Assembly (NCBI GenBank): GCA_947632715.1
Contig: CANRQF010000001.1
Span: 1-53,234 of the forward strand
DNA from: an uncultured Bacilli bacterium
Lineage (GTDB): Bacteria > Bacillota_I > Bacilli_A > RF39 > UBA660
Direction: 5' to 3'
Length of the DNA stretch: 53,234 bases
A program made the position numbers and the translations under genes. The notes under the pieces were generated by a model, which ran no database searches, was not told the DNA's origin, and saw only the letters and a list, made by a program, of their open reading frames with translations. Below are positions 149 through 7,704 of the stretch, one piece after another. The stretch's first letter is position 1. Each line of letters opens with the position of its first letter.

Positions 149-179
149 AAAAATATCACAAACATTATGTAAGTGATAT
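149..179 (-). terminator. weak intrinsic terminator candidate downstream of the cohesin-like gene
   Basis: 7-bp inverted repeat ATATCAC/GTGATAT (153-159, 173-179), followed on the minus strand by a short T-run. Confidence 0.35.
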
Positions 180-202
180 TTTGGTTTTTAAAATTATATA
201 AG

Positions 203-1102
203 TTATTTATTTTTTTGTTTATTCTTTAAGAAAATGTAGAAAAATCCTATGACTATTAATATAAATAATACTATAGGTAGAATAAATTTAGATTCTTTTT
301 TAACTTTTTCTTTAACAATTCCTTCTTCTTTTGATGCTCTAATAACATTTAATTGATATTTTTTTATTGTTCCATCTTCAGCCTTTACAGTTATTTCAAA
401 ACTATTTTTTCCTTCAGCTAAATTAAATGAACCTAAACCACTAACTGTAGCTTTTGCATCTTCAGTAGTACCATCAATAGTAAGAGAAGTTATTTCATGT
501 TTAACCTCAACATTATAATTTAAAATTTCACTATCAAAATTAATACTTCCCACACTTAAAGTAAGACTTTTTAAATTACTATTATGTGATTTATTAGTTG
601 AAGTATTATTTTTTGATGGTGTTTCTTCTTTTTCCTCATTTGGTTTAGTTGTAATATTTTGATTTACATATTTAACTGTTTTAAATGTATTAGATGATGA
701 TATGTCATCATCTCCATCACTACCAGTAATATTATTAAATGAAATGGTAGTTAATTCATTATTTTGCAAAGATAAATTTTCAAAATTTAAAGTTAAAATA
801 TTCTTTCTATCAGTTATTCCTATACTTTTATATAATACTATTTTAGAACCATTTATTAATTCAAAATTTTCTAATGGCGTTATAGATAGCAACTTTATTT
901 TATCTTGATCATATTCTAAATTTCCAACTAATCCACATAAACCATTACATGAACCCGTTAAATCAATATTACTGACTTCTAAATAAATAGTAATTTTATC
1001 AGAAAATGTATCATTACTAATTATATTGACATCAAAACCTTTGGCAAAAGCAGTTGATACAAAACTAATTAATGAAACTACAACTATTAATATTTTTTTC
1101 AT
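203..1102 (-). CDS. membrane-anchored surface protein with a signal peptide, cohesin-like beta-sandwich, cadherin-like beta-sandwich module and C-terminal TM anchor
   Basis: N-terminal signal peptide MKKILIVVVSLISFVSTAFA. Residues about 21-140 follow a cohesin-like pattern (LVGNLEYDQDKIKLLSITPLE). LKSLTLSVGSINFDSEILNYNVEV...YQLNVIR matches the cadherin-like beta-sandwich repeat. C-terminal hydrophobic helix ILPIVLFILIVIGFFYIF is followed by basic residues. Confidence 0.6.
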   Translation of the reverse strand: MKKILIVVVSLISFVSTAFAKGFDVNIISNDTFSDKITIYLEVSNIDLTGSCNGLCGLVGNLEYDQDKIKLLSITPLENFELINGSKIVLYKSIGITDRKNILTLNFENLSLQNNELTTISFNNITGSDGDDDISSSNTFKTVKYVNQNITTKPNEEKEETPSKNNTSTNKSHNSNLKSLTLSVGSINFDSEILNYNVEVKHEITSLTIDGTTEDAKATVSGLGSFNLAEGKNSFEITVKAEDGTIKKYQLNVIRASKEEGIVKEKVKKESKFILPIVLFILIVIGFFYIFLKNKQKNK

Positions 1103-3483
1103 TAGTTCACACTTTCTAATCCTGCAACATCATTACCGATTTTTACAATATCATCAAGTGAAATAGAACCAGTATCTGAAACATCGCCTGCTAAAGCATA
1201 AACTCCATCTAAATCATTAACTCCATCTAAATGTTGCTTAGTCTTTACTAAATCTGTAATTGAAATATTACCATCACCACTGACATCACCCTTAACAACT
1301 ATATCTAAATCTAATAAAGAGTTATTATAACTATCAGTAACTCTTGCAATCATTCCTGTTCCCACATAATTAGATTGCAGAATAGTTCCGGTTTTATCAT
1401 ACACTTTAATTTTATTTTTAGAATCTAAACCAATATTACTAGCAAAGTTACTAATCTTAGTTTGATTTTTAACATTTTTAATTAAATCATTAAAATTATC
1501 AATAACATAATTTGTATTTTTAGGAAAATATGCCTTACTATCAACAAAATCAATATCGAAATATCCGGATGCAGAATCCAAACCATTATCATAAGAAAGT
1601 TCAAAATAAGCTGCTTTTATATTAGTTAAGTTTTTATTAATATGGACCATTGCATTTCCTTTATTTAGTTGTTTACCCGTAAATTCATAAGTTTCAACTA
1701 TATCTTCATAATTATTATTAAAATTAATAAATGAAGATTGAACTTTTACTTTATAAGTTTCATTATCTTTAAATCCTATTCCATTTATATATATTTTGAT
1801 AGGAAAGTTTCTAGTAGCAATATAATTATAATCATCCATTCTTAAATATAAATTCTTATTATTACCATTTGATAAACTAACATTAGCAAAAACAGGATAA
1901 TTTTGTAATCTTAAAGTTGGAGCACAATAATATATTAACTCATCATTATATTTTATTACTAAGCGATATTTTGGAATATTATAATTTTCATGATTATCAA
2001 CTTTAAATGTTAAACCATTGTGATTTAAATCACGACCATTTACTGAACCACTAGTAATTAAATTTGAGTTTAATGTATCACCATCATCATTAATATTATC
2101 ATAATACAATTCATATGTATAATTTAAGCTTTCATCAAAATCCCTGCCTAAATATCTTATATATATGTTTGAATACTTATTAAAAACATCTTTATTAGTT
2201 TCATAAGTACCACTTGAAAAATAAAAACCACCATCGCCCATAAAAACTGATAAATTCTTTTGACCATTTTCATAAAATAAATCTGAACTTATATTAACTT
2301 TTTTTTCAAAATAAGTATAATAATAATTTATATTTTTTTCTAACTCATTTATATTAATTTTTATAGTATATTTATCTTCATCAGTATATTTTTTTTCTGT
2401 TGAAGAGATGAAATCATCTAAATCTAAAGTATATTTATTATTTAAATCAAGACCATTTACATTAATTGTTTTTTGATAAACTTTATTATTTCCTCGCATT
2501 ATATTTAATGTAACATTATAGTCTTTATTCATAAAATTATTACCATCTATTACAACTGCTAGGGGATTATTTTCATTATGATATTTACTACTTACAACAT
2601 AATAATCTCCTGTAAAATAAATATTATTTGTAGGATTATTTTTATAAATAAGTGATGATTGATAATTAGGTATACTTTCATCATTTACCATATTTAAACT
2701 TACATTATATAATTTATCATTAGCTTTATATTTTAAATTAACATTATAATCATAAATATTAAATTTCATCGATAAAATTAAACGATCTAAGCCATTGATT
2801 GGAATTTCTAATAATACTCCCTTTTTTAATTCAGCACCAGAATAATTATAGGTATTGTTATTTATTAAAATTGGATAATTTATACTATCTTTTAAGTTTT
2901 CACCTTTTAATTTAAAAGTTATATTTTGTAAATTATTAACTTCAAAAACACAATTTTCATCTTCTAAAACTGGAGTAATAACCTCACCATTTTGATATAG
3001 TTCTTCTAATATTAAATTACTTATTGATGGATTAGTTTCATTATAAAAATTAACTTTTATCGTTAATTCTTGACTTGCAATTAAACGATATTCATCTTTA
3101 TTATTACTTTCCATAGGTTTTTCATATATATTATAAACAATATTATTAACAGCACTTTCTTTGTCTAATAAAAGAAACCAATCTTTACCATTATAAGTAT
3201 CTGTATATACACTACTTATAATATCTTCCGTAGTTCGTGAGCCATTAACAACTCTTTCTAAACAATAACTTTTACTATTATCATAATTTTTAATTGTATA
3301 ATTTACATATATTTTATTTATATCATTTATTTCATAAATTCCATCTTTTAATTCAATCTCTTTATCATTTTGAATAAGAGAATTAATTTCAAATATTTCC
3401 TCAGCATGTACTGTTGGAATCATAAATAAAAAATTATTTATAAAAAGACCAAAACATAAAATTATTTCTAAAACTTTTTTCAT
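1102..3483 (-). CDS. large secreted beta-rich protein with a C-terminal dockerin-like module
   Basis: Signal peptide ends ...PTVHAEE. The last 65 aa carry two EF-hand-like Ca loops, DVSGDGNISITD and DVSDTGSISLDD, typical of dockerin type I repeats. The stop overlaps the start of the downstream cohesin-like gene by 1 nt. Confidence 0.65.
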   Translation of the reverse strand: MKKVLEIILCFGLFINNFLFMIPTVHAEEIFEINSLIQNDKEIELKDGIYEINDINKIYVNYTIKNYDNSKSYCLERVVNGSRTTEDIISSVYTDTYNGKDWFLLLDKESAVNNIVYNIYEKPMESNNKDEYRLIASQELTIKVNFYNETNPSISNLILEELYQNGEVITPVLEDENCVFEVNNLQNITFKLKGENLKDSINYPILINNNTYNYSGAELKKGVLLEIPINGLDRLILSMKFNIYDYNVNLKYKANDKLYNVSLNMVNDESIPNYQSSLIYKNNPTNNIYFTGDYYVVSSKYHNENNPLAVVIDGNNFMNKDYNVTLNIMRGNNKVYQKTINVNGLDLNNKYTLDLDDFISSTEKKYTDEDKYTIKININELEKNINYYYTYFEKKVNISSDLFYENGQKNLSVFMGDGGFYFSSGTYETNKDVFNKYSNIYIRYLGRDFDESLNYTYELYYDNINDDGDTLNSNLITSGSVNGRDLNHNGLTFKVDNHENYNIPKYRLVIKYNDELIYYCAPTLRLQNYPVFANVSLSNGNNKNLYLRMDDYNYIATRNFPIKIYINGIGFKDNETYKVKVQSSFINFNNNYEDIVETYEFTGKQLNKGNAMVHINKNLTNIKAAYFELSYDNGLDSASGYFDIDFVDSKAYFPKNTNYVIDNFNDLIKNVKNQTKISNFASNIGLDSKNKIKVYDKTGTILQSNYVGTGMIARVTDSYNNSLLDLDIVVKGDVSGDGNISITDLVKTKQHLDGVNDLDGVYALAGDVSDTGSISLDDIVKIGNDVAGLESVN

Positions 3484-3605
3484 ATAACACCACTTTCTTA
3501 ACTCTATTAACTTTATTTTAACACATTTTATAAATATTTCTATATATTTTTCTTTTTTATTTCATTCATTTCTTAAATTTAATATAATTAAGTTGGTGGT
3601 TTTCT

Positions 3606-4292
3606 ATGGATATACTTAATATTATAAAAAAATATAAAGATGACAAATATAAACAATTTCAAGAAAAAATTTGTAAAACTAAATATGAAATTATTGGTAT
3701 TAAAATACCCATTTTAAGAAAAATTAGTAAAGATTTAATAAAGAATAATAATACAGATGAATTACTTTGTTATAATTATGATAAATATTTTGAACTTATT
3801 ATTATAGAGGGTTTTATTATTGCCAATATTAATGTTGATTATAATAAAAGATTAATGTTAATATCTAATTATTTAAAGAAAATAGATAACTGGGCTATCT
3901 GTGATACTTTTTGTAGTGCATTAAAATTTATTAAAAAAGATTTAGAAGAATTTTTAAACTATTTAAATAAAATTAAAAAAGTAAAGAAAGAATATTATCA
4001 AAGATTTTATATAGTTATCTTACTGCAATATTATCTTAATAATAAATATATAAATTATAATTTAGAAGAATTATTAAATATAAAAAGTGATAAATATTAT
4101 GTTAAAATGGCTATTGCATGGAATTATTCTATTTGTTTAGTTAAATATTATGATATTACTTATAATTATTTAAAAAATAATAAAGATAAAATAGATACAT
4201 TTACATTAAATAAGATTGTTAGTAAAGCTAAAGATTCTTACCGGTTAACAATAATACAAAAAGAAGAATTAGAAAAGTTAAAAAAATCTTAA
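3606..4292 (+). CDS. DNA alkylation repair protein (AlkD-like HEAT-repeat family)
   Basis: Size and motifs (IGIKIPILRKISKDL, DNWAICDTFCSALKFI) resemble the DNA_alkylation family. Confidence 0.6.
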   Translation: MDILNIIKKYKDDKYKQFQEKICKTKYEIIGIKIPILRKISKDLIKNNNTDELLCYNYDKYFELIIIEGFIIANINVDYNKRLMLISNYLKKIDNWAICDTFCSALKFIKKDLEEFLNYLNKIKKVKKEYYQRFYIVILLQYYLNNKYINYNLEELLNIKSDKYYVKMAIAWNYSICLVKYYDITYNYLKNNKDKIDTFTLNKIVSKAKDSYRLTIIQKEELEKLKKS

Positions 4293-4353
4293 TTTAACTA
4301 AACAATAATAGACAAAATTTGCTAATTTTAGTAAAATAAAATTGGTGATAAAA

Positions 4354-4713
4354 ATGGAGTGTTTATTTTGTAAAATTATTAAAGGAGAAGTTCCTAGTAA
4401 CAAATTATATGAAGATGATAAAGTAATAGTTATTTTAGATGCTTATCCTAATGTTGATGGTCATACTTTAATTATTCCTAAAGTACATTATGATACATTT
4501 ATGGATATACCTGATGATTTAGTATTACATATTAACAATATAGCTAAAAAATATACTGCTCATATAATGGAAAAATTAGATGCTAAAGAATTAAGTGTAC
4601 ATGTAAATTATGGTAATAGTCAAAAAATAAAACATTATCATATGCATTTACTTCCAAATTATGGAACAAGGGCTGTAAGAGATGTTAAAGAAGTTTTTGA
4701 GGAATTAAAATAA
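4354..4713 (+). CDS. HIT family (histidine triad) nucleotide hydrolase
   Basis: CLFCKII N-terminus and histidine triad HYHMHLLP. I prefer the ATG at 4354 (GGTGAT SD-like 4 nt upstream) over the TTG at 4342 in the ORF track. Confidence 0.85.
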   Translation: MECLFCKIIKGEVPSNKLYEDDKVIVILDAYPNVDGHTLIIPKVHYDTFMDIPDDLVLHINNIAKKYTAHIMEKLDAKELSVHVNYGNSQKIKHYHMHLLPNYGTRAVRDVKEVFEELK

Positions 4714-5960
4714 TGGCAAGATTAAAGAAAAAAGTTAAAAAAAATTTAACTATATTTCTAATTATTATTCTTTGTGGTTTTCTTTTATTTAAAGTTGGAA
4801 CATTAATTGGTAATATTACTCCAAGTGATAATAATAGTAATAAAGAAATACTTAATAATAAGAATAATAAACCTAAAGAAGAAGAAGAAAAGATTAAAAC
4901 ATATACTGCTAGTTTAATTGCTACGGGAGATGGACTTATTCATAAACCAATATATCAAACTTATTATGATAGTACCACTAATAGTTATGATTTTTCTAGT
5001 ATACTCTCTTTAACTAAAGATAAGATTAAAGACTATGATATTAGATATTATAATCAAGAGACAATTTTTGATGATAGTAAACCTTATAGTAGTTATCCAG
5101 TTTTTAATACACCAAGTGCTTTTGGGGAAAACATGATTGATGCTGGTTTTAATTTAGTAAGTCTTGCCACTAACCACTCAATGGATGGTGGTGCTACTTC
5201 AGCTAAAACGAGTGCAACATTCTGGCGTAATAAAAAAGATATTTTAGCAACTGGTATGTTTTATGATAATTCTGATCGAGAAACTTATCCAATTATGGAA
5301 AAAAATGGTATTACTTATACAATGTTATCATATACAACAAGTACTAATGGTTTGGGAGCATCTGCCCTTTCTAAAGAACCATTTATTTTAAATACATATA
5401 ATGAAGAAAGAGTAAAAAAAGATATTGAGGCTGTTAGAGATAAAGTTGATGTATTAATTGTTGCAATACACTGGGGTGTTGAATATAATCAAGATGCTAC
5501 AGCAGAACAAAAGAATATTGCTAAATTTTTAGCAGATAATGATGTTGATATCGTCTTAGGTACTCATTCTCATTGTATTGAACCTTGGGAAAGAATTGAT
5601 GATACAGTAGTTTTCTATTCCTTAGGTAACTTTGTTTCAAACCAAATGGCTGCTGAAACACCTAAAATAAGAAAAGTTGGTGTTGTTGGAATGTTTGCTA
5701 CATTAAATATAGTTAAAACAGTAGATAAAGAAAATAATACAACTACAATTGAAATAAAAGATATTGGAGCTGATTTAAACTATTCTTATCGTACTCATAA
5801 TAATACTACAGGTAAAAATGAATATTTAGTAATACCTTTTAGTAAAATGGAGGAAAAATATTTAAAAGATTATCAAAGTGTATATGACGAATTTAGTAAA
5901 GTTTTAACTAAGTATGATGATTCAATTAAAATTGAACCACTACCAACTACTGCAAATTAA
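4713..5960 (+). CDS. CapA/PGA_cap family metallophosphatase-like protein, N-terminally membrane anchored
   Basis: N-terminal TM helix. Motifs LATNHSMDGG, HWGVEYN and GTHSHC are typical of the CapA family. The ATG overlaps the HIT stop by 1 nt. Confidence 0.75.
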   Translation: MARLKKKVKKNLTIFLIIILCGFLLFKVGTLIGNITPSDNNSNKEILNNKNNKPKEEEEKIKTYTASLIATGDGLIHKPIYQTYYDSTTNSYDFSSILSLTKDKIKDYDIRYYNQETIFDDSKPYSSYPVFNTPSAFGENMIDAGFNLVSLATNHSMDGGATSAKTSATFWRNKKDILATGMFYDNSDRETYPIMEKNGITYTMLSYTTSTNGLGASALSKEPFILNTYNEERVKKDIEAVRDKVDVLIVAIHWGVEYNQDATAEQKNIAKFLADNDVDIVLGTHSHCIEPWERIDDTVVFYSLGNFVSNQMAAETPKIRKVGVVGMFATLNIVKTVDKENNTTTIEIKDIGADLNYSYRTHNNTTGKNEYLVIPFSKMEEKYLKDYQSVYDEFSKVLTKYDDSIKIEPLPTTAN

Positions 5961-5986
5961 AATACCTTTATAAGGTATTTTTTTTA
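5958..5986. terminator. bidirectional intrinsic terminator between convergent genes
   Basis: Hairpin AATACCTT-TAT-AAGGTATT (5961-5979), flanked by an A-run and a T-run. Confidence 0.55.
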
Positions 5987-6873
5987 AATAAAACTAGTTT
6001 AGGTATTTGTTTATCTTTAGTTAAATATTCAAAGAAATCAATATCATAATCATCTATTAAACGCATAAAATCTTTTATTATTTTATCACTACTAAAAACT
6101 AAAGCACTACGAATAATAAGCGTTGTTATTTCTAAATCTTTATCATCAAAATACTCTACTTGTTCTTCTAATACTGACCAAGTTACTTCATCATATATTA
6201 CTTTTAATAATTCATTAGTAGTATTATAAAATGCTTTCGTAAAACCAATATCTAAAAATATATCTTCTGGTATTTGAAAATTTCTTTTAATAACTTTTTG
6301 TAATAATTCATCAAAGATAAATAATATATTATATTTAAAATTATTATATTTTTCTTTTAACAATATATTAGGTTCATTATTTATTTTATTATCAGTAATT
6401 TTTATTAATACTTTAATAATATCTTGATATATTACTTTTCTTAAGTCATCAATGTTTTCTATAGAATTAATATCATTTTCAAAATAATCTTCCTCTTCTT
6501 CATCTAATACATCTTCCTCATCTAAAGAATAATAATCTGAATCATAATCATAAACAAAATCATTTTTTTCAATTAAATCATATAATTTATTTAATATTCT
6601 TGCTTTAATAATCTTCTCATAATCATCTTTAACATAATTTAACATATTTTCAACATTATACATTTCATCATCGCTAATAAAATCACTAATATTAACTAAA
6701 CTATAACTAGGTATATTATCATAAATTCTTTTTTCTTTTTCTAATAATTTAGTTAAAGAAATTTCTTTTTTACCATTTTTAATATCTTGTAATTTATTAT
6801 AAATTTCTATTGATACTTGATATAAATTACTAACAATATTATATTCATTTTCTAAAAGTCCATATTTTCCCAT
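5968..6873 (-). CDS. hypothetical acidic cytoplasmic protein, tandem paralogue of 6883..7704
   Basis: Long ORF, no TM segment, D/E/Y-rich central segment. Shares a KYN-x-IxxNFxIxxD block and a C-terminal IPK(I/L) motif with its neighbour. Confidence 0.5.
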   Translation of the reverse strand: MGKYGLLENEYNIVSNLYQVSIEIYNKLQDIKNGKKEISLTKLLEKEKRIYDNIPSYSLVNISDFISDDEMYNVENMLNYVKDDYEKIIKARILNKLYDLIEKNDFVYDYDSDYYSLDEEDVLDEEEEDYFENDINSIENIDDLRKVIYQDIIKVLIKITDNKINNEPNILLKEKYNNFKYNILFIFDELLQKVIKRNFQIPEDIFLDIGFTKAFYNTTNELLKVIYDEVTWSVLEEQVEYFDDKDLEITTLIIRSALVFSSDKIIKDFMRLIDDYDIDFFEYLTKDKQIPKLVLFKKNTL

Positions 6874-6882
6874 ATAACCACC

Positions 6883-7704
6883 CTATTTATACAATCTTAA
6901 TATTTTTGGTATATTTCTGTCTTCATTAAATGTTTTTAAAACTTTTTGAGCAGAATTTTCAGTAATATTTAATCCCATTTCTTGTGACGTTTTAACAAAC
7001 TTATTAACATTCATATCATAATCCTCAGGTAACAATAAAGAAATTATTCTCGATATAATTTTACCAAAATAAGTTTTATCATGATTAATAACTGTTATAT
7101 CTGAGAAATACTCATTTACAAATTCAGCATGACCAAATACTACTCTTTCTCTATAAAATTCAGCATCAGATAATCTTAAAACATCTTTAATAAAATAGCT
7201 ATACCAATATACATCTTTTGCTATTTCAAAATTATTATCTATTAAATAAGAACATATATTAGGATACATATATGCTAAAAGATATTTTGCTTTTATACCA
7301 TATTCAATATCATCATCATTATTTTGAATAAAATTTAACATAGTTTTAAGTGTATCATCAATTAAAACATTTCTTATTAATGAATTATTATCATTCATTA
7401 AATATTTAAAATTATTAGATATACGAGCATTATCTAAAAATTTTTGATTATTCATAATAATATTTTCTAGAATATTAGTAATTGTATATTCATCTTTAAT
7501 ATATTTTTGATAATTATTTTCATCATATATTCTTTTATATATTTGTTGTTCACAATTGAATGAAAATTTTAATCTAGATAATACTTGATCATATTCTTTA
7601 TCTTTTTGTTTATTTAATTCTAAATGACATAATTCCATTAAGGTATTATAAATAGATATAGAATAGCCATTTAATGTTGTTAATTCAAAATCATCCATAC
7701 CCAA
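6883..7704 (-). CDS. hypothetical protein, tandem paralogue of 5968..6873
   Basis: Long ORF lying 9 nt upstream of its paralogue. No family recognised. Confidence 0.5.
   Translation of the reverse strand: MGMDDFELTTLNGYSISIYNTLMELCHLELNKQKDKEYDQVLSRLKFSFNCEQQIYKRIYDENNYQKYIKDEYTITNILENIIMNNQKFLDNARISNNFKYLMNDNNSLIRNVLIDDTLKTMLNFIQNNDDDIEYGIKAKYLLAYMYPNICSYLIDNNFEIAKDVYWYSYFIKDVLRLSDAEFYRERVVFGHAEFVNEYFSDITVINHDKTYFGKIISRIISLLLPEDYDMNVNKFVKTSQEMGLNITENSAQKVLKTFNEDRNIPKILRLYK

Follow-up and report, generated by a model that had tools for sequence, protein, structure and literature searches.

A probable, divergent non-cellulosomal cohesin-dockerin anchoring pair in an uncultured Bacilli bacterium

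Non-cellulosomal cohesin-dockerin pairs are often listed and seldom assigned a partner or a purpose. Two adjacent genes near the start of a 53,234-nucleotide stretch of DNA (hereafter, the window; positions 1 to 53,234 of contig CANRQF010000001.1, assembly GCA_947632715.1) from an uncultured Bacilli bacterium may be such a case. One encodes a large secreted protein with a dockerin-like C-terminus (hereafter, the cargo) and the other a small membrane protein with a cohesin-like domain (hereafter, the anchor), which raises the question of whether the second protein holds the first at the cell surface. We conclude that the locus is a divergent non-cellulosomal cohesin-dockerin anchoring pair, of a kind already known, and that the cassette recurs widely in gut Gram-positive bacteria. 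We consider it probable that the dockerin cargo is captured by the membrane cohesin anchor, resulting in the non-covalent display of a non-enzymatic beta-sandwich rod. The source genome comprises 1.23 Mb in 92 contigs and is 88.7% complete, and the G+C content of the window is 20-28%.

The putative docking modules and the proteins that carry them

Both genes, with all the features described within them, lie on the reverse strand. The cargo gene (1102..3483) encodes a secreted, dockerin-bearing surface protein of 793 aa without an enzyme domain, and the anchor gene (203..1102) encodes 299 aa comprising a signal peptide, a cohesin, a linker, a Cadherin-like domain, and a transmembrane (TM) helix. 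An earlier interpretation of the window made without database searches (hereafter, the sequence-only reading) had the two genes overlapping by 1 nt, and the open reading frames (ORFs) agree: the cargo stop and the anchor start share one nucleotide in the junction TAATG. The sequence features named in that reading were all found at the positions it gave.

The N-terminal domain of the anchor (residues 22-147; 662..1039) was assigned to the cohesin fold using an AlphaFold2 (AF2) model, Foldseek, and hhalign. The model of the whole anchor has a mean predicted local distance difference test (pLDDT) score of 78.5, with ten beta strands at residues 24-145 at a pLDDT of ~90. Compared with the nine-stranded flattened beta-sandwich of the cohesin fold, the N-domain is closest to solved cohesins. 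In the Foldseek search against PDB, cohesins occupied 17 of the 21 top ranks (E 3.6e-9 to 2e-5, prob 1.00, TMt 0.55-0.77), including 2w1n (3.6e-9), OlpC (4dh2), P. cellulosolvens ScaB Coh7 (4ums), C. acetobutylicum CohA2, 6kgf, C. cellulolyticum 1g1k/2vn5, C. perfringens 2vo8 (TMt 0.77) and 2jh2, and A. fulgidus 2xdh. The modelled domain lacks a crowning helix and matches type I cohesins.

At the sequence level the connection runs through intermediates. The N-domain profile of the anchor family (A3) aligned over 94 columns with a profile of the N-domains of more distant relatives (A4; hhalign 96.6%, E=6e-10), and A4 matched solved cohesins, with 1tyj/2y3n at E ~1e-4 followed by 5g5d, 4uyp, and 2w1n. 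This suggests homology of the anchor N-domain to recognised cohesins through a transitive link only. A phmmer search of the anchor against PDB found nothing, and none of the 16 anchor-family members matched the Pfam Cohesin family (PF00963) at E<=1. Because no Pfam or direct PDB sequence match was obtained, the cohesin assignment rests on the fold search and the profile-profile links. Of the cohesin-like region named in the sequence-only reading, the fold and the transitive link to cohesins stood, and a Pfam Cohesin match was not found.

Two motifs characterize the cohesin of the anchor family, i.e., an invariant CxxxC (C52-x3-C56) and a G-L-x-G-x-L-x-Y-D strand, the latter typical of cohesins. 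C52 (947-949) and C56 (935-937) are placed in the loop and strand just ahead of the G-L-x-G-x-L-x-Y-D strand. The CxxxC motif, which could be a disulfide or a metal site, is absent from cohesins of the type found on another contig of the genome (C49, described below).

The C-terminus of the cargo (residues 726-793; 1105..1308) was annotated as a divergent type-I-like dockerin with two putative Ca-loop and helix repeats, based on a Dockerin_1 (PF00404) score of 19.0 bits and on the family profile. When the C-terminus is scanned in isolation, PF00404 is its top Pfam match, aligned over profile positions 1-51 of 57; further scores of this dockerin were 17.3 bits and, in the genome search, 18.3 bits. 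The best PDB sequence matches of the whole cargo are likewise dockerins (E ~0.05). A profile built from the last 68 residues of seven members of the cargo family (A6) matched the type I dockerins of C. thermocellum Xyn10B (2ccl_B, E=4.2e-6; 1ohz_B, E=9.1e-6), the alignment to solved dockerins spanned positions 4-61 of 68, and ~20 further PDB matches were also dockerins. The sequence-only reading had claimed a type I dockerin: the dockerin is recovered by profile (2ccl_B/1ohz_B), its Pfam score is below the gathering threshold (GA), and the label 'type I' denotes only the best resemblance.

The duplicated segment that had drawn attention to this region (DVSGDGNISITDLVK...DVSDTGSISLDDIVK) corresponds to residues 733-781 (nt ~1141-1287) and lies inside the dockerin. 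A dockerin was taken to have two ~22-residue repeats, each with an EF-hand-like Ca loop bearing D/N at positions 1, 3, 5, and 12, followed by a helix. Loop 1 (DVSGDGNISITD) reads D-V-S-G-D-G-N-I-S-I-T-D and is canonical except for Ser at position 3. The two helices were modelled at residues 742-753 and 776-786, with pLDDT <50.

Directly ahead of the dockerin, a small alpha/beta domain (residues 651-725; 1309..1533), hereafter the pre-dockerin module, was delimited by BLASTP, a hidden Markov model (HMM), and the AF2 model, in which it covers approximately residues 655-727. The cargo C-terminus aligned with an otherwise unrelated cargo on contig C49 (BLASTP E=1e-10), and the alignment began at residue 667, ~60 residues ahead of the dockerin. 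The pre-dockerin HMM also matched directly ahead of dockerins on unrelated cargoes, i.e., at loci L021, L034, L036, and L043 and on C49. This ~70-residue module may have the role of an X-module (X-Doc).

The remainder of the anchor is consistent with a membrane-held display stalk. Its signal peptide (residues 1-20, ...TAFA/KG; 1043..1102) was read from the sequence, with a predicted cleavage site at which A20 is conserved in the family. The cohesin is followed by a low-complexity N/T/S/K/E/P-rich linker (residues 148-171; 590..661; pLDDT <50 at residues 149-168) and by a Cadherin-like beta-sandwich stalk domain (residues 172-256; 335..589). The latter had been named from the sequence and is recognised by PF12733 at 46.4 bits (GA 24.2; residues 177-255, profile positions 1-88 of 89), as it is in all 16 anchor-family members. 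The C-terminal TM anchor that had also been called is modelled as a helix along a hydrophobic stretch (residues 274-297; 212..283), followed by the basic tail KNKQKNK. From the signal peptide and the positive-inside rule, the cohesin is predicted to be outside the cell. The anchor family comprises ~25 full-length relatives.

The cargo starts with a Sec signal peptide (residues 1-27, ...TVHA/EE; 3403..3483), read from the sequence with a putative cleavage site, and the AF2 model places a signal-type helix at residues 2-18. Residues 28-650 (1534..3402) are all-beta in the model and, together with the Foldseek matches, indicate ~6 tandem beta-sandwich (Ig/macroglobulin-like) domains. For this model, which has a mean pLDDT of 78 overall and 80-95 in most of the all-beta region, a 12-sequence alignment (A5) was used. 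Foldseek returned only tandem beta-sandwich chains at a template modelling score (TM-score) of ~0.2, namely macroglobulin (MG) domains of complement C5/C4 and alpha-2-macroglobulin, adhesin repeats, and the Sap S-layer protein, with no catalytic fold among the matches. As modelled, the array is a generic fold. No internal sequence repeats were found by self-BLAST; the beta-sandwich domains are too diverged to be called as sequence repeats.

The full-length cargo matched no family and no catalytic domain in scans of Pfam and NCBIfam, in agreement with what the sequence-only reading had said of the large protein. For the anchor, the same scans gave the Cadherin-like domain and nothing else. Only 6 relatives were found in 5.8 billion proteins, two of which (P0126 and P0127) carry PF00404, and the orthologues share 30-77% identity. 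The cargo most likely has a structural or adhesive role, serving a gut commensal as a surface fibril, an adhesin, or a coat protein.

A second pair and the recurrence of the cassette

A whole-genome census of the modules was performed with purpose-built HMMs, and exactly two dockerins and two cohesin-like domains were detected, arranged as two adjacent pairs. This fits the description of the window locus as a 'minimal non-cellulosomal pair'. The search for other dockerin-bearing proteins that had been proposed for this genome thus yielded one more, on contig C49. Genome-wide Pfam searches revealed one strong dockerin (50.7 bits) on C49 and a cohesin (28.1 bits) 90 nt further on, and the only PF00963 matches in the genome were this one and a weak site on contig C7.

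The C49 pair (locus L005, forward strand) has the same layout as that of the window. Its cargo (3765-5498, 577 aa) contains SH3_3 and Dockerin_1 (45 bits) and is likely to be a GH73-like wall hydrolase, judging by related loci. In its anchor (5509-6993, 494 aa), a signal peptide and a cohesin are followed by a Cadherin-like domain, an extra domain, and a TM helix, and the protein ends in a long Lys/Glu-rich cytoplasmic tail. The two C49 genes are 10 nt apart, and the window anchor matched the C49 anchor at E=2e-12 (BLASTP).

The genomic context of the pair was profiled in 84 loci fetched through the anchor family. A cassette was defined as two same-strand neighbours in which the gene for a protein ending in a dockerin directly precedes a gene encoding a signal peptide, an N-domain, a Cadherin-like domain, and a TM helix, which describes the window locus. 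A C-terminal dockerin ORF directly ahead of a Cadherin-like/TM stalk gene was observed at 49 of the 84 loci, where the gaps range from -11 to 246 nt. The cargoes of the other loci include GH73 glucosaminidases with SH3 domains (e.g., in the cultured Massilimicrobiota timonensis), leucine-rich repeat proteins, and repeat giants of 2,170 aa, and their dockerins pass Pfam.

Orthologous cargo genes were detected directly ahead of orthologous anchor genes at the related gut-Bacilli loci L006 and L009-L014, nearly always with overlapping stop and start codons. In all seven orthologous loci with the upstream gene on the contig, the window-type dockerin was paired with a window-type (CxxxC) cohesin. 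At L014 the orthologous cargo is split into parts of 520 aa (4606-6168) and 270 aa (6189-7001), either through a frameshift or stop (pseudogene) or through an assembly error.

Sequence conservation is concentrated in the modules that would dock. Within the cargo, the mean identity to orthologues is highest for the dockerin (62%), followed by the pre-dockerin module (51%) and the cargo body (38%). Within the anchor, it is highest for the cohesin (49%), and the linker has 11% with large variation in length. Locus L006 (ENA ERZ1643251 NODE_455) encodes two tandem cargo paralogues (1275-3617 and 3617-6001) ahead of one anchor gene. Their bodies are ~45% identical. Over the last 150 codons the protein identity is ~99%, and the nucleotide differences, 22 in 450, are mostly synonymous. 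Read from these sequences, the pattern indicates purifying selection on a putative plug that must fit the single downstream socket.

Variants of the arrangement were observed at L015, L032, L064, and L086, where three genes occur in the order of a ~1,580-aa dockerin giant of Cadherin-like repeats, a 700-790-aa Cadherin-like/TM protein, and a 545-610-aa cohesin/Cadherin-like protein. This suggests larger assemblies made from the same parts. The source genome itself has a third Cadherin-like/TM stalk (C35:9839-10807, forward strand, 323 aa), with a signal peptide and a CHAP-like amidase motif (GYGHVAYV). In this protein the amidase is fused directly on the membrane stalk, where the anchors have the cohesin, so the stalk is a general membrane display module.

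Inspection of the window around the two genes revealed a hairpin followed by a U-rich stretch (150..182, reverse strand), a likely terminator of the two-gene unit. This A/T-rich hairpin lies 20 nt 3' of the anchor stop (-11.1 kcal/mol, z=-3.4 vs shuffles). It was found by direct reading and RNA folding; a consensus terminator scan found nothing, because the hairpin has only 2 G-C pairs. A sigma-70 promoter scan performed no better than on shuffles, and an Rfam scan of the window gave no match. The neighbour upstream of the cargo gene (3606..4292) is in divergent orientation. Given the 1-nt overlap, the 3' hairpin, and the divergent upstream neighbour, the cargo and anchor genes look like one unit. 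The nearest public relatives of both genes are in metagenome-assembled genomes from goat rectum and Hadza human gut that bear the labels Bacilli, 'uncultured Mycoplasma', or Mycoplasmatota.

Proposed docking and its alternatives

In the mechanism that we propose, both genes would be transcribed and translated as one unit that serves non-covalent surface display. The anchor would be exported and its signal peptide removed, and the C-terminal TM helix would hold it in the membrane with the basic tail inside, as a type I membrane protein. Outside the cell it would display the Cadherin-like stalk, the flexible linker, and, at the tip, the single divergent cohesin. The cargo would be exported separately, and its pre-dockerin module and dockerin would plug into the anchor cohesin. 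Docking is probably Ca-dependent, via at least the first, canonical Ca loop, and the docked cargo would be a rod of ~6 beta-sandwich domains projecting from the cell. The near-identity of the two plugs at L006 is as expected, because both cargo paralogues would have to fit the single downstream cohesin. That the downstream protein may tether the upstream one had been suggested in the sequence-only reading, and four independent lines argue for it: the cohesin fold, the profile link, the second, canonical C49 pair of the same layout, and the conserved gene pair. The analysis demonstrates the domain folds and families, the gene overlap, the conserved synteny, and the count of two dockerins and two cohesins; that the modules bind physically, that this depends on Ca, that each pair is specific one-to-one, and that the role is adhesive we infer.

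Several observations weigh against this interpretation. PF00963 was matched neither by the full anchor nor by its isolated N-domain at E<=10 (GA 24.1 bits), and the profiles of the anchor family, built from the whole anchor (A1) or the N-domain (A3), reached no solved cohesin in PDB by sequence. The sequence-only reading had named the lack of a significant HMM hit for the cohesin-like region as a ground for its own refutation, and for Pfam this is literally the result. The dockerin of the isolated C-terminus, at 19.0 bits (E=0.0016), is below the Pfam gathering score of 22.9, and it was modelled at a pLDDT of 33-45. Its loop 2 (DVSDTGSISLDD, D-V-S-D-T-G-S-I-S-L-D-D) has Thr at position 5 and not the usual Asp/Asn, and loop 2 decays further in orthologues (NITDTGEIGITD, N-I-T-D-T-G-E-I...). 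Among 200 other genomes of the order, only 2 have strict orthologues of the cohesin domain and 28 have weaker cohesin-like matches, and the pair is therefore an accessory trait. Sortases are present in the genome. An explanation of the tether by the lack of a sortase was thus rejected, and the cohesin-dockerin tether would be an additional anchoring route, not a replacement.

Given that the genome has two dockerins and two cohesins, the partners might not be the neighbours. The window dockerin would then bind the C49 cohesin or another receptor, the window cohesin would take the C49 enzyme or both cargoes, and the two pairs would be one small promiscuous network, not two private pairs. Such cross-pairing is in line with the 27% identity between the window and C49 dockerin regions (pre-dockerin module included), and in cellulosomes it is common for a type I dockerin to bind several cohesins of the same species. 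The two cohesins are, however, distant from each other: BLASTP aligned their N-domains only at the last strands, and a separate HMM was needed for each. Moreover, the window-type dockerin always occurs with the CxxxC cohesin (7/7 orthologous loci). We consider cross-pairing unlikely.

Alternatively, the two proteins could be co-expressed without docking. In that case the EF-hand-like C-terminus would only stabilise the cargo with Ca2+ or bind a wall polymer, and the anchor would be an independent membrane-anchored adhesin whose tip is merely a cohesin-like beta-sandwich. The unmatched PF00963 and the subthreshold dockerin would be explained, and many non-cellulolytic organisms have dockerin-like modules without a known cohesin partner. 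On the other hand, the fold search was specific for cohesins and not for generic Ig domains, the gene adjacency is kept across many types of cargo, and in both proteins constraint is strongest on the docking modules, all of which make this explanation improbable.

It is very unlikely that the MG-like array of the cargo is a tethered protease trap or shield, like a bacterial alpha-2-macroglobulin. Although the top Foldseek matches (E ~1e-10 to 4e-12) are to MG-domain chains from complement C5/C4, A2ML1, and bacterial alpha-2-macroglobulins, the TM-scores are only ~0.2, as expected of any string of beta-sandwiches. The cargo also lacks a thioester, bait-region, or CUB-like domain and a Pfam A2M match, and it is half as long as the bacterial alpha-2-macroglobulins.

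Relation to known systems and meaning

The capture of the cargo by a cohesin anchor has its closest parallel in single-cohesin proteins with a C-terminal TM helix, described as possible non-SLH (S-layer homology) anchoring scaffoldins in H. luporum, C. cibarium, and Lachnoclostridium sp. MSJ-17, the partners of which were called unclear (PMC11557425). Like them, the window anchor carries a single cohesin, has neither an SLH domain nor a sortase signal, and bears a C-terminal TM helix that presumably resides in the bilayer, and their hosts are not, or not clearly, cellulolytic. Unlike them, it has a partner candidate in the translationally coupled upstream gene, and its cohesin is invisible to Pfam, carries CxxxC, and sits on a Cadherin-like stalk.

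A passage of PMC4611034 citing Wegmann et al. 2014 ascribes to Ruminococcus bicirculans one dockerin and one cohesin, with an associated GH73 enzyme. Going by that passage, this non-cellulolytic gut Firmicute shares with the source genome a minimal cohesin-dockerin set, and the C49 pair and the GH73-dockerin loci (Massilimicrobiota timonensis and others) look like the R. bicirculans type. The window cargo differs from what is described there: rather than a peptidoglycan hydrolase, it is a non-enzymatic beta-sandwich array of 793 aa.

The glycosidase/toxin pairs of C. perfringens (2w1n, 2jh2, 2vo8, 2ozn) are the best or near-best structural matches of the anchor N-domain, and there too a cohesin joins secreted proteins outside a cellulosome. 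In C. perfringens both modules are on large secreted enzymes that assemble together, whereas the window has a small dedicated membrane anchor and a cargo without an enzyme.

The best profile match of the dockerin is in the cellulosomal type I systems (C. thermocellum Xyn10B dockerin-CipA cohesin, 1ohz/2ccl; OlpC, 4dh2), with which it appears to share two tandem Ca-loop and helix repeats. Unlike cellulosomes, the window system lacks a multi-cohesin scaffoldin, a carbohydrate-binding module (CBM), and glycoside hydrolases. Its conserved pre-dockerin module is reminiscent of the X-Doc in types II and III. It is doubtful whether the dockerin, with its imperfect second Ca loop and two asymmetric repeats, could bind in a dual mode. 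A cellulosome or amylosome was rejected, as no more than 2 dockerins and 2 single-cohesin proteins occur in the genome and the cargo lacks both glycoside hydrolase and CBM. Our literature search found no paper combining cohesin, dockerin, and Cadherin-like domains in such a cassette.

A broader interpretation, which we put forward only tentatively, is that gut Bacillota use the cassette as a general and modular alternative to anchoring by sortase or SLH, with a private plug for each socket. The window pair would then represent a distinct specificity class, with a Pfam-invisible CxxxC cohesin, a dockerin whose decaying second Ca site may give single-mode, possibly one-calcium docking, and a plug that stays the same even where tandem cargo paralogues have diverged.

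Standard HMM-based annotation misses the cohesin of the window fully and its dockerin narrowly, and Pfam surveys therefore undercount such systems in uncultured gut Bacilli. The window locus is a clean, minimal, and testable case, with one plug and one socket that are translationally coupled, and the 1.2-Mb genome with its two pairs is a test bed. If the binding is true, the small anchor and the 140-residue plug would make a compact natural surface-display pair, and in a gut lineage that is poorly known, the cargo would be a candidate adhesin or coat protein.

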